Assembly: GCF_055900595.2 (NCBI RefSeq)
Contig: NZ_CM148325.1
Direction: 5' to 3' (one strand)
DNA length: 64,000 nucleotides
Positions within the stretch are counted from its first letter, which is position 1. Each line of letters starts with the position of its first letter. The position numbers and the translations under genes were made by a program. Shown here one piece after another: positions 42,743 to 48,100 of the stretch. Under the pieces are notes generated by a model. It did no database searches. It saw only the letters and a program-made list of their open reading frames with translations, and was not told the origin of the DNA.

Positions 42743-42804
42743 TTAAACAAAAACGCAGAAGGATAACCTTCTGCGTTACAGTTGCTGGCAACGTGCGATT
42801 TATC

Positions 42805-42875
42805 TTGCCGGATGCGGTGTTAACGACTCATCCGAGTTGGCATGGTAAGCGAAGCGCATCAGGCAATGTTGCATT
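42805..42875. repeat. REP/BIME-like element: two degenerate REP units in inverted orientation
   Basis: gccggatgcggtgttaacgactcatccgag and ggtaagcgaagcgcatcaggcaat resemble the REP consensus in opposite orientations; lies between convergent ydhP and sodB. Confidence 0.5.
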
Positions 42876-42887
42876 TGCCATCAGTTA

Positions 42888-43469
42888 TTATGCAGCGAGA
42901 TTTTTTGCTACGAATTCCCAGTTCACCAGCGCCCAGAAGTGCTCCAGATAGCCAGGACGTGCATTGCGATAGTCGATGTAATAAGCGTGTTCCCAGACAT
43001 CAACGGTCAGCAGTGGAGTCGCATCGGTGGTCAGCGGAGTACCCGCGTTAGAGGTTGAAACGATAGCCAGTTTGCCATCGCTGTTTTTCACCAGCCAGGT
43101 CCAGCCAGAACCAAAGTTTTTGATTGCTGCATCAGTAAACTGTGCTTTGAAATCGGCAAAGCTGCCAAAAGATGCGGCGATAGCTTCAGCGACTTTTCCA
43201 GTTGGTTCGCCACCCGCGTTCGGTGCCAGGCAGTTCCAGTAGAAAGTATGGTTCCAGACCTGAGCTGCGTTGTTGAATACGCCACCTTCAGAGCTGCGAA
43301 TAATCTCTTCCAGTGATTTACCTTCAAACGCGGTACCTTTAATCAGGTTGTTCAGGTTAGTGACATAAGTCTGATGATGCTTGCCGTAGTGATACTCGAT
43401 GGTTTCCGCAGAAATGTGCGGTGCCAGAGCATCTTTAGCATATGGTAGTGCAGGTAATTCGAATGACAT
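42888..43469 (-). CDS. sodB: iron superoxide dismutase (193 aa)
   Basis: [36 protein letters not shown]... recognised. Confidence 0.97.
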
Positions 43470-43596
43470 TGCTACTCTCCTTTATTATTAATTTGCATAC
43501 GTACAATAGCCTTATTGTGCGTATGGATAGGGTAGCAAATTAAAAGGTGAGACAAAAGATGAACTTACCCTGTTGCCGTAACAACAGGGTAGAGTT

Positions 43597-44424
43597 TTAG
43601 CGAAGTGTTTTTGGGGTCATTACCCGGCGAGCGCCAACATAGTGGCGCTGCCAGTAGTCTTCACTGAGAGAAGTGATTTGAATTTCCTGACCCGTACGCG
43701 GTGACTGAATAAATTTGCCGTTGCCGACATACACGCCGACATGATCGGCTGTACCGCGTCCCTGAGTACGGAAGAAGACCAGGTCGCCGTTTTTCAGTTC
43801 ACTACGTTCGATAGGTGCTGCATCACGCAGGTGATACATTTCATTCGCCGTACGCGGAATACGAATTTTCACCAAATCTTTATAAGCGTAATAAACCAGG
43901 CCGCTGCAATCAAAACCGGTACGCGGTGAGCTGCCACCCCAACGATATGGCTTACCAATTTGCTGCATCAGTTTATTCATTGCCACTTTTGTGGCTTTTT
44001 GCACCTTCGCTTTGTGTGCGTCGGCAAGGGTTCCTGACGCGGCATTTTTGACTTTCACACAATGCGATTTATAGCCCTTACGTTTGGTACACTTTTCGGT
44101 AAAGCTGGCTGAGGCCGTTTTATTGACGACGTGTTTGCTGCGAGTTTTGGCGTTTTTAGAAGCGGTAATGGAAGATTTTTTAGCGGAAGAAGCGGTTTTG
44201 CTTTTGGTCGTACTTTTACTGGCGGCTTTTTTCGCTGTTTTCTGGCTGGCTTTCTGGGTCTTTTTGGTGGTTGCCGTGCTTTTCTTTTTATCTGCTTTTT
44301 TGGTGATATGAGTGGTAGCAGAACTCTCCCTGGCTTGCTTTGAAGCATGGGCCATAGGCGTTAAAGGCAGGGTGGTAAAAAGTAAAGCACAGAGCGTGAT
44401 CGAAATACGGTTTATCCGCGCCAC
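43597..44424 (-). CDS. mepH: NlpC/P60-family peptidoglycan DD-endopeptidase with a Lys/Thr/Ser/Ala-rich linker (about 271-275 aa)
   Basis: C-terminal NlpC/P60 domain (catalytic Cys in GFDCSGLVYYAY; His in DHVGVYVG); signal peptide; low-complexity KKADKKKSTATTKKTQK... tract. Confidence 0.85.
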   Translation of the reverse strand: MARINRISITLCALLFTTLPLTPMAHASKQARESSATTHITKKADKKKSTATTKKTQKASQKTAKKAASKSTTKSKTASSAKKSSITASKNAKTRSKHVVNKTASASFTEKCTKRKGYKSHCVKVKNAASGTLADAHKAKVQKATKVAMNKLMQQIGKPYRWGGSSPRTGFDCSGLVYYAYKDLVKIRIPRTANEMYHLRDAAPIERSELKNGDLVFFRTQGRGTADHVGVYVGNGKFIQSPRTGQEIQITSLSEDYWQRHYVGARRVMTPKTLR

Positions 44425-44758
44425 TGAGCGTCCCTCTGTTAAGGCAGGTCTATCATGCCTGCGTCTGATTTACAAAACTTGATGATTCTAATGCATAGAA
44501 GAAGAGAAAGTTAATAGCTTTTATTGTTAAAAAATACGTTTCGTCGGCGAGCGCAAAAAAATGCAGCAGTGGAAGCTAAAAATGGTTATAAATGCGCCAG
44601 TTTGCCGTGCGTAAGGGAAGAAACGAATATTTGAAATGCAACAAATAGAACAAAGGGATAAAATAGCAAAAGCGTGATGAAAATGTTATTTTCCGATGCC
44701 GCACTGACCCGCTACAATGTCAGATTACTGCCGTAAAGAAGTTTGAGGAAGCAAGACA

Positions 44759-45106
44759 ATGAGCACCACTATCGAAAAAATCCAACGCCAGATTGCTGAA
44801 AACCCGATCCTGCTGTACATGAAAGGTTCACCGAAACTGCCGAGCTGCGGTTTCTCTGCCCAGGCAGTCCAGGCGCTTGCCGCATGTGGCGAACGTTTTG
44901 CCTATGTTGATATCCTGCAGAATCCGGACATTCGTGCGGAACTGCCGAAATATGCTAACTGGCCGACCTTCCCGCAACTGTGGGTTGACGGCGAGCTGGT
45001 CGGCGGTTGTGATATCGTGATCGAAATGTATCAGCGTGGCGAACTGCAGCAGCTGATCAAAGAAACTGCCGCTAAATACAAGTCTGAAGAGCCGGACGCT
45101 GAATAA
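44759..45106 (+). CDS. grxD: monothiol glutaredoxin Grx4 (115 aa)
   Basis: CGFS active-site motif (KLPSCGFSAQ); 115 aa. Confidence 0.95.
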   Translation: MSTTIEKIQRQIAENPILLYMKGSPKLPSCGFSAQAVQALAACGERFAYVDILQNPDIRAELPKYANWPTFPQLWVDGELVGGCDIVIEMYQRGELQQLIKETAAKYKSEEPDAE

Positions 45107-45120
45107 TCCGTCCTGCAATA

Positions 45121-45150
45121 CTGACGGATGCGAACGGGCATCCGTCAGTC
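45121..45150. terminator. hairpin terminator between convergent grxD and lhr
   Basis: actgacggatgc-gaacg-gcatccgtcagt, a 12-bp perfect stem, followed by a CT-rich tract. Confidence 0.6.
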
Positions 45151-45156
45151 CTTTCT

Positions 45157-48100
45157 CTATCCCCAATCCAGTCCTTGTGGCGAACTTGAAAATCCCGCCT
45201 CACGCAGCAGCGTAAACATCGGCGTTTGCCGGACCGGTAGGTCATTCACTTCTGTTAGCGTAAAGCGCAGCCGTGGTTCGCGACGCAGTGCGGTAGTCAG
45301 CGCGTGGAAAATCTCTGGGGCGAGTAATTCCTCTTTTTCCTGCCAGACCAGCATTTTTTTGCCACCTTGCGCCAGATAGAGTAACAATTTGCCGCCAGAA
45401 ACGACCACCAGCGCACCCGCCCGACGCGTTGGTATCAGCGTTGCCGGATGTGCAGGCCAGGGCAGAAGATTTCCCCATGCATTAGCCGGATCGTTGGCAG
45501 AGAGCGCCACTGGTGTATAGTGGCGCGTTTGCGTGGCTTGTGTCGCCAGATCGCGCAATCGGTCAATAGTCAGACGTTCAGCGAATTGCGCGCCACCCAG
45601 ACCTTCTACAAAACGACCTCGCATAATTCGCCCGGAGTCTTCCATACTTCGACAAAGCGTTTGCATCGATGGAAACCCGCCAGGGATATTTTCGGCTATC
45701 ACCGCCTGACGACTGATGATGCCGTAGCGGTCGAGCATATTTTCCGCCAGCGCCAGCATCCTTTCGGTATCGTTTAGTGGCTCCACCTGCAATAACGACC
45801 AGCGTCCAGCCAGATTTGGTGTGTTGTAAGATAGCAGCGGCGAGACGGGTTGCGCATAGACAGGACGTCCACGACGAGCCCGGTGGCTGCGACGAGTTGA
45901 GGTGCGTGTGTTGGTACTGCTGCGGGTGAGGGCGCGTAACGGTGCCCAAATGTCGCTGGTGATGACGCCTTGCCAGACCAGCGCCCATAACGCCTCTTGC
46001 AGGGCTGAGGGATCAACCGATTCGTCGATTTTATCGCGTATCCGTTGGCTGATTTGTTGTGCAAACCAGGCTCCTCCGTCAGCCAGAACCGTGACTATCG
46101 CTTGCTGCAGCGCCGAACGATTCGCCTGATTCGCTTCGGCGGGAGTGAACGATTCTGCGGCATATTCCTGTAGATGCAGTGCCACCAGACCGTCATCTTC
46201 ACCCAGTTTTTTTTGCCCCGACCAGATAACCGCACCGGTTGCCAGTAATTCATCGAGCATTTCTGGCGAATAGTCGCGTACGCGGGCAGGCAGGATCTGG
46301 CTTTCCCAGAGTGAGGCGGGTAAACCGACTCCGGCAAGCTGTTCGATCACCCGCATGACGCCATCCACGCCCTCATAAACGCCTGGCGATGTTGAGGCAA
46401 AGAGTGCCGGGCTACCATCGGTGGCGGGTAATACGCCCTGACGTTCCAGCAGCAATCGCGCATAGGTCGTGGCCGCAACGGGACGTGTCGCTTCTCTGGC
46501 GGCTTGCAGCGAGCGCAAACGCAGACGACGAAATACTTCATCGCTCACCCAGATGTCTTGTTGCAGATTCATCACCAGCCCCTGTTCGCGCAGTTGCTGA
46601 AGTTGCTCTTCGACAATGGCAATACCGAGACTAAACTCATGAGCCAGTTGTTCAGACGTGACCAGAGCATGAGCCCGGAGATAGCGCAGAAAGAGGTCGC
46701 GAAGCGGGTAACTGACTCGGTGCAAATAAATCTCTGGCAGTGACTCTGGTAGTCGTACGCCGAGGGCATCGCGCAGCCTGGCGGCATCATCCATACAGGC
46801 AAGACGCTCCTGCCCGCTAATCATCGTCGGGAAGATTCGTTTTACTGCAAGAAGATTTTCCAGATACGACGCAATCTCTTCACTGCTGCCTGTATGCCGT
46901 TGCGCCAGGTCTTCAACGGTCATTGGCCCCAGTTCGCGCAGCAGGTCGAACAATCCTTCTTCACCTTTCGCTCTTCTACCAGAAGCCAGTCGTTGCAACT
47001 CTTCTTCCACCTGGCGAATGACCTGCGGGTCGAGTAATTCCCCCGGATCGACCTGTCCGAGTAGATTGCGCAGTAACTCGCTGTCCAGCGACAGTACGGA
47101 TGCCCGGCGCTCTGCCAGCGGGGCGTCGCTCTGGTACATAAATTCCGCGACATAGCCGAACAATAAACTGGCGGCGAAAGGCGAAGGCGTAGTGGTCGTT
47201 ACATCGGAAATTTGAATTTCGCCACCGTTCAGACGACGCATCAAACGCTCCAGAGCGGGAAGATCATAAACATCTTGCAGACATTCGCGTAGGGTTTCGA
47301 GAATGACAGGAAAATCCGGATATCCCTGTGCGATTTCCAGCAACTGACTGGCGCGTAGCCGTTGTTGCCAAAGCGGGGTACGATGTTCCGGCGTGCGGCC
47401 CGGCATTAATAATGCCCGAGCGGCGCATTCACGAAAACGGGCGGCGAAAAGTGCCGAGCTGCCTACCTCCTCGCGGACAATTTGCAGCAACTTTTCTGGT
47501 TCAAACAAAAAAATCGCGGCATCGGGCAATTTACCATCGGTGTCAGGAATGCGCGCAACAATGCCGTCATCACTGGCAACCACAGACGCGTCAGCGCCCC
47601 ATAGTGCATGTATTCGCCCGGCAATCGCCAGCGCCCAGGGTTCATGCACCCGTCTTCCATAGGGAGAGTGCAAAATAATACGCCAGTCGCCAATTTCATC
47701 ACGGCACCGTTCGAGGACCAGATGACGACTACCCGGAACGATGCCCGTCGCGTTGCGCTGCTCGTCAATCAACCCCTGAATATTGGCGATCGTATTTTCT
47801 TCTGCCAACCACGGGGGAATAGTCCCGGAAAAGAACGCGCCATCCGCCAGTAAATGGAGAAAATCGCCGATCATCTCGCCTAATTCTGCCGGACGTCCGT
47901 TACCTTCACCACGCCAGAAGGGAAGGCGGGCAGAACGACCTGGAGCAGGAGTCACAATCACCTGATCGCGGGTGATTTGCTGGATCCGCCATGAGGTAGC
48001 GCCGAGAGTGATAATGTCGTTCACCCGCGACTCATATACCATCTCCTCATCCAGTTCACCCACCCGCCGCGAACCGGCCTGTTCTTCACCTTCGGGTAAT

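Follow-up and report, generated by a model that had tools for sequence, protein, structure and literature searches.

The low-complexity segment near the 5′ end of mepH very probably encodes an N-terminal spacer of the periplasmic peptidoglycan DD-endopeptidase MepH. The three open reading frames that overlap it in other frames are by-products of its base composition, and the 12-bp deletion that distinguishes its two common length variants would have been mediated by short direct repeats. These features were studied in a window of 64,000 nucleotides, i.e. the whole stretch of DNA analysed, from contig NZ_CM148325.1 (assembly GCF_055900595.2; Table 1). The protein consists, in order, of a putative signal peptide, a spacer of about 83 residues dominated by K, S, T and A, a predicted hairpin with two cysteines, a predicted helix, and the NlpC/P60 domain. 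Codons of the spacer are mostly AAA/AAG, ACN, GCN, AGC and TCN, which makes the sense strand poor in T, leaves several other frames open and thereby yields the three ORFs. Short direct repeats and A-runs abound in the same DNA, so that it also collects in-frame indels and frameshifts; in the common event, 12 bp lying between two CCAGAAA repeats are deleted, which turns the ancestral 275-aa allele into a 271-aa allele. The mepH gene is already known and well studied, and a disordered basic spacer with small indels between strains is an ordinary, expected feature of such a protein; the biological weight of the present observations is small.

The mepH locus and its product

The identification of the gene as mepH is secure on the grounds of identity and gene order. 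By megablast, 5425 of the 5426 complete E. coli genomes match it, with the RefSeq annotation "mepH: peptidoglycan DD-endopeptidase MepH". The best RefSeq match shows 99.8% identity and the same neighbours (grxD-mepH-sodB), a synteny also found in E. albertii, Salmonella, Citrobacter and Leclercia. The exact 275-aa protein occurs under the name MepH on 362 contigs in a collection of about 15 billion proteins. In NCBIfam, the best model for the protein was the MepS equivalog, at 85.7 bits versus a cut-off of 186, and no MepH-specific model passed, so that the assignment rests on identity and synteny. Signals read from the flanking sequence are listed in Table 1. A search of positions 42800-45200 against Rfam gave a single, sub-threshold match, to the SodB 5′ UTR thermometer (RF02775; 43440-43544, minus strand, upstream of sodB; 31 bits versus a gathering score of 98, E=0.003).

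Table 1. Features of the mepH region, in coordinates of the window.
Feature	Position	Strand	Basis or remarks
sodB	42888-43469	minus	flanks mepH
Terminator-like hairpin just 3′ of the mepH stop	43566..43591	minus	11-pair stem; consensus match only
mepH CDS, peptidoglycan DD-endopeptidase MepH (YdhO)	43597..44424	minus	GTG start, 275 aa, stop included
NlpC/P60 (C40) catalytic domain, residues 157-267	43624..43956	minus	Pfam, PDB matches, invariant columns
Conserved helix, residues 133-156	43957..44028	minus	AlphaFold2 and alignments; precedes the catalytic domain
Predicted beta-hairpin, residues 108-126	44047..44103	minus	AlphaFold2 strands 108-113 and 121-126, pLDDT about 73
Alternative-frame ORF, 97 aa, K/R/P-rich product, judged spurious	44055..44348	minus	+1 frame of mepH, ATG at 44348
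Antisense ORF, 75 aa, judged spurious	44084..44311	plus	ORF list
Low-complexity basic linker, residues 28-110	44095..44343	minus	80% K/S/T/A, net charge +20
Antisense ORF, 70 aa, judged spurious	44131..44343	plus	ORF list
A6 run (GTT/GCT AAA AAA TCT), A7 in a rare frameshift allele	44176..44181	minus	alignment, translations
12-bp indel CCAGAAAGCCAG, residues QKAS 57-60, present in the window (long allele)	44246..44257	minus	alignments
Putative signal peptide, residues 1-27, MARINRISITLCALLFTTLPLTPMAHA, A-H-A cleavage motif before Ser28	44344..44424	minus	sequence features
Shine-Dalgarno-like GAGGGA	44431..44436	minus	read from sequence; six bases to the GTG start
Sigma-70 promoter-like site 5′ of mepH	44485..44514	minus	9/12 matches; count no higher than in shuffles, so weak
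grxD	44759-45106	plus	flanks mepH on the other side; lhr beyond

Several irregularities of the locus were noted in other genomes. In RefSeq, strain BL21 carries a 50-aa hypothetical protein (WP_001299740.1; L004, 49-201) between mepH and grxD. Its counterpart in the window (44524-44634, plus strand) has just 36 aa and a TTG start, so that this ORF is probably a spurious call. In TUM2805, an E. coli genome of 4.09 Mb (NZ_CP128950.1; L005, 2503-2616), mepH has lost its first ~712 bp, and the entire mepH-grxD intergenic region is gone as well. The last 116 bp of the gene, annotated as an incomplete endopeptidase, abut the start of grxD. One of the 5426 complete E. coli genomes is without any mepH match. 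A long-allele copy of mepH is placed on a sequence record bearing a plasmid label, and the short-allele junction was matched twice within a single genome. Two orthologue clusters, from Salmonella enterica and S. bongori (P0056 and P0058), are annotated with an N-terminal extension of 11 residues (MNRLPLTEDCS-V-ARINK); the V corresponds to the GTG used as start in E. coli, so the Salmonella start was probably mis-called upstream.

The n-, h- and c-regions of the N-terminal segment are legible (MARINR, ISITLCALLFTTLPLTP and MAHA-S, respectively) and conserved, the whole being nearly invariant across genera, with a helix at residues 7-15 in the AlphaFold2 model. These features suggest a Sec-type signal peptide that would direct MepH to the periplasm; the ITLC that it contains presumably does not fit a lipobox. 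Between linker and helix, C112 and C122 are invariant in 35 of 35 orthologues and lie one on each strand of the predicted hairpin, which makes them candidates for a periplasmic disulfide; such a bond finds no mention in the literature searched. The catalytic domain matches Pfam NlpC/P60 (PF00877, MEROPS C40) over profile positions 1-105 of 105 (E=8e-37, 125.9 bits versus a gathering score of 23). Its C173 and H228, within DCSG and HVG motifs, are invariant in the 35 orthologues and align with PDB relatives, the sequence matches in the PDB including MepS/Spr and others. MepH is described as a DD-endopeptidase active on 4-3 cross-links and redundant with MepS and MepM in literature cited by PMC11211486 and PMC8996183.

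Synonymous divergence along mepH between the window and E. albertii (L014, 601-1428) is very uneven. The 22 synonymous sites of the signal peptide are unchanged (dS of 0), and dS rises to 0.23 for the linker, 0.33 for the hairpin and helix, and 0.84 for the catalytic domain. Possible causes are a codon-usage constraint acting on the 5′ end and a mosaic history of the gene.

A basic linker of two common lengths

The linker comprises 21 K, 16 S, 15 T and 14 A among its 83 residues, and its compositional entropy is 2.94 bits, versus 4.12 in the catalytic domain. The first-pass annotation had quoted a peptide from this segment, KKADKKKSTATTKKTQKASQKTAKKAASKSTTKSKTASSAKK, which indeed corresponds to residues 42-83 of the 275-aa MepH ORF. 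The interval 43900-44350 that it assigned to the linker does contain it but is too wide, the rest reaching the catalytic domain and its cysteine. Its description of a basic linker that precedes the NlpC/P60 domain and is probably disordered is borne out: in an AlphaFold2 model built from a 35-sequence alignment, residues 31-100 have pLDDT values of 25-28 and no secondary structure, against 50-75 for other residues. This model is poor overall (mean pLDDT 49), so that the contrast between linker and domain is clear and yet falls short of a rigorous call of disorder. A charge-hydropathy test placed all three segments, the folded domain included, on the 'disordered' side and is hence non-discriminating. 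No solved structure covers the linker; alignments to PDB chains begin around residue 127, except for one with LytE that starts at residue 56.

Comparison of orthologues gave a consistent picture of a segment conserved in kind. Among the 91 orthologue clusters having both anchors, the median K+S+T+A fraction is 0.73 and the median net charge +19, and intact linkers range from 69 to 94 aa with an overall median of 81. The linker sequences themselves align poorly. At the DNA level the linker is the most diverged part of the locus, with 43-56% identity to Salmonella and Citrobacter, compared to about 80-88% for the catalytic domain. These patterns point to selection on composition and charge and not on sequence or exact length. 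By its composition, the absence of predicted structure and a conservation confined to composition, the segment of residues 28-110 may be classed as an intrinsically disordered, low-complexity region.

The bias of the linker is compositional and not repetitive, since Tandem Repeats Finder (positions 43500-44600, minimum score 30) detected no array. Identical 8-mer pairs number 5, versus an average of 1.9 in shuffles; A-runs of at least 5 nt number six in the 249 nt of the linker, versus four in the remaining 579 nt of mepH. A tandem-repeat (VNTR-type) coding region was considered for the linker and rejected on account of the missing array and the small number of 8-mer pairs.

That such linkers can differ in length between strains had been predicted, and was confirmed: linker length and sequence are not identical in all strains, and two length alleles were seen. 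The 275-aa allele of the window is shared with a bovine isolate, an O25:H4 strain, strain 042 and O111:H8. O157:H7 and BL21 carry a 271-aa allele without QKAS, a length that we also take to be that of the K-12 reference protein. Junction searches in complete E. coli genomes gave 1875 matches for the long allele and 3547 for the short allele, of which about 3546 are true short alleles. The allele-specific queries were such that the opposite allele shares fewer than 28 contiguous bases, and strain 042, which is long, cross-matched the short query. Of the 5423 genomes in which most of mepH is present, 5421 carry one or the other of the two alleles, the long at a frequency of 35% and the short at 65%.

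The indel responsible is bounded by two copies of a 7-bp direct repeat, CCAGAAA (44251-44257 and 44239-44245), which leaves an ambiguity of 7 nt in its position; in strain 042 the repeat extends to 9 bp (CCAGAAAAC). The idea of tandem-repeat indels was dropped, for lack of an array, in favour of slippage between short direct repeats. E. albertii and other genera have residues at the QKAS positions, and the 12 bp are not a copy of the adjacent 12 bp, which they match at just 7-9 nt. The long form is therefore taken as ancestral and the short form as a deletion, which we infer to have arisen by replication slippage between the CCAGAAA repeats. Among 18 sampled haplotypes, no fewer than three SNP backgrounds carry the short allele. 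The short allele of BL21 type differs from the O111:H8-type long allele by 2 SNPs over the gene and its flanks, with an identical CDS, and from other short haplotypes by 12-17 SNPs. Either recurrent deletion or a single deletion moved by recombination would produce this distribution, and 18 haplotypes cannot separate the two.

Selection on linker length offers a different account of the two alleles, in which the linker is a functional module, docking to NlpI/Prc or anchoring the enzyme electrostatically to peptidoglycan or the outer membrane, and the indel represents adaptive tuning as opposed to neutral slippage. The linker has a dN/dS of 0.18 between E. coli and E. albertii, indicative of purifying selection, and is strongly positively charged in 91 of 91 orthologue clusters. 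Both alleles are also frequent. Moreover, MepH is degraded by Prc, a degradation promoted by NlpI (PMC8996183), and the related MepS binds NlpI through its disordered N-terminus (PMC11211486). Nevertheless, the drift of the linker in sequence and length between genera argues against a selected length. The unit that the indel takes out is also just one among many QKT/QKA units of a similar kind, and the ends of the indel fall exactly where slippage between direct repeats would place them. We thus regard adaptive tuning of a functional module as unlikely, and favour a spacer whose length changes by slippage. Quite improbable, too, is the bolder idea that the linker acts as a mutational hot spot, at which recurrent slippage at CCAGAAA and frameshifts in A-runs would repeatedly tune or switch off a redundant MepH in natural lineages; paired frameshifts might be tolerated, with the enzyme still functional, as the +1 peptide is likewise basic and rich in K, R and P.

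Alternative frames and rare variants of the linker

The three alternative-frame ORFs reported over the linker (97, 75 and 70 aa) are present exactly where the first-pass annotation had placed them. It had called them artefacts of repeat composition. The first half of this statement holds, in view of the lack of family matches and gene calls, the closure of the frames in Salmonella and the dN/dS values given below; the second does not, as the cause is a T-poor bias and there is no repeat array. The sense strand of the linker consists of 42% A, 29% C, 16% G and 13% T, and because TAA, TAG and TGA all require a T in the sense strand, whichever strand is read, the scarcity of this base keeps other frames open. 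In its 249 nt, the other two sense frames contain 0 and 5 stops and the three antisense ones 2, 1 and 7, a total of 15 compared to about 20 expected at the rate of the catalytic domain, which is a modest reduction. Over the whole window, each kb of coding DNA holds on average 1.9 nested alternative-frame ORFs with a length of 70 aa or more, and triple-overlap pile-ups were found at 8 places (the linker and 7 others) amounting to 1.7% of coding DNA. The three ORFs are hence mildly unusual, standing weakly above the background of coding DNA in the window.

An overlapping gene, in particular one encoded by the 97-aa ORF, is the alternative that this region invites. Its +1 frame has an ATG, the open stretch measures 101 codons in E. 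coli and reaches 118 in E. albertii and 120 in Citrobacter, and its product is found within annotated proteins of a frameshift allele (cluster P0041, 101 members). The frame was open in 2000 of 2000 codon-order shuffles of the linker, however, so that composition alone suffices and its openness needs no selection. In Salmonella, where the linker is less T-poor (19% T), these frames are closed and the longest +1 open run, of 42 codons, lies elsewhere in the gene. The open runs of E. albertii, Citrobacter and Leclercia end differently and mirror the local mepH sequence. Searches of Pfam and NCBIfam with the three ORF products gave no matches, and the exact products are not among about 15 billion predicted proteins. 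In the comparison of E. coli with E. albertii, the +1 frame of the linker has a dN/dS of 1.3, in contrast to the 0.18 of the mepH frame. In the antisense direction the ratio is 3.5 in the frame of the 70-aa ORF, 1.4 in another frame, and 0.36 in the frame of the 75-aa ORF, which shares wobble positions with mepH such that its ratio is lowered by construction. The appearance in P0041 is solely due to joining by the frameshift. We consider a real overlapping gene very improbable; as judged by these comparisons, the three ORFs evolve neutrally and are not genes. As candidates for overlapping genes they were rejected with respect to frame conservation, purifying selection, homologues and gene calls.

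The frameshift allele just mentioned has seven instead of six A residues in the A6 run of Table 1. Its 101 member sequences come from many independent sequencing runs; among complete RefSeq E. coli genomes, a 56-nt query in blastn mode found it in 0 of 5424. In this allele the true mepH frame ends after 87 residues, and gene calls start at the ATG of the 97-aa ORF and cross the frameshift into the C-terminus of MepH, giving a 246-aa 'putative exported hydrolase' that lacks a signal peptide. The ORF thus enters databases as a false N-terminus of a broken mepH. This calls for caution in annotation, since the open +1 frame makes a frameshifted mepH look like an intact 246-aa 'exported hydrolase'.

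Other rare variants of the E. coli linker are found in single-member clusters with larger in-frame deletions, of 9-61 residues, and in one further cluster the deletion affects the helix downstream of the linker. Microhomology at the junctions of the rare deletions ranges from 1 to 9 nt, and some of the large deletions may be assembly errors. Two E. coli clusters (P0039 and P0049, 214 and 210 aa) share the same 61-residue deletion, one of them on the long background and the other on the short, with a junction AKK|AASGTL and a 5-nt GCCGC microhomology; the second half of the linker and the two-Cys hairpin are removed. P0013 has two homopolymer indels that compensate each other, and about 55 linker residues between them are read in the +1 frame. 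In its source assembly (GCA_900448615.1, UGAW01000002.1; L013), grxD is fragmented (84 aa versus 115) and lhr is in pieces, which suggests widespread homopolymer errors in this assembly and makes P0013 probably a sequencing error. In strain FCI5 (NZ_CM172810.1; L006, around 720-735), a 5-bp gap and substitutions lie exactly at the site of the 12-bp indel, and RefSeq labels the gene 'frameshifted'; the gap could be a real hot-spot mutation or an assembly error. That length differences in general are errors of sequencing or assembly in low-complexity DNA, as P0013, the FCI5 gap and the larger deletions, most of them singletons with little junction microhomology, might suggest, has next to no probability, given that the 12-bp indel, for which error is already refuted, is in frame, divides the complete genomes 1875 to about 3546, is linked to SNP haplotypes and known lineages, and has its long form in E. 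albertii too.

Linker role and related systems

No paper on the function of the MepH linker was found in the literature searched. Most likely it acts as a flexible, positively charged spacer or tether that would allow the catalytic domain to reach peptidoglycan. By analogy with MepS, it possibly also serves as a handle for the NlpI/Prc degradation system. The two natural linker lengths, each common in complete genomes, and the natural deletion alleles provide material for studies on the regulation of MepH by NlpI and Prc.

Among systems to which the linker may be compared, contingency loci and other slippage-prone coding repeats resemble it in having short direct repeats and A-runs that give rise to in-frame indels and on/off frameshifts. 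Unlike these, the MepH linker is without a tandem array; its repeats are of 7-9 bp, its runs are A5-A6, A7 is missing from the complete genomes, and nothing suggests reversible switching. With LytE and CwlO of B. subtilis and RipA of M. tuberculosis, MepH shares a C-terminal NlpC/P60 domain preceded by a variable N-terminal region, and LytE is the sole PDB chain with an alignment reaching the linker. The N-termini of these enzymes hold folded modules such as LysM repeats and coiled coils, whereas Pfam detected none in MepH.

MepS (Spr) has the same catalytic domain as MepH (PDB 2k1g, 7v6s and 8xud; E about 1e-19 to 1e-20), and likewise an unstructured segment ahead of it and degradation by Prc with the help of NlpI. 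It differs in being a lipoprotein, with an N-terminal segment of roughly 36 residues that folds on NlpI by hydrophobic contacts (PMC11211486). The corresponding segment of MepH is longer, at about 83 residues, highly basic and of low complexity, and a contact with NlpI may be proposed for it by analogy. Its hydrophobic residues are few, 5 in P0001, a near-identical member of the cluster to which the window belongs, and a median of 6 in orthologues. E. coli MepH (YdhO) itself is the same gene, at 99.8% identity and with the same neighbours, the window carrying the 275-aa allele where BL21 and O157:H7 carry that of 271 aa.
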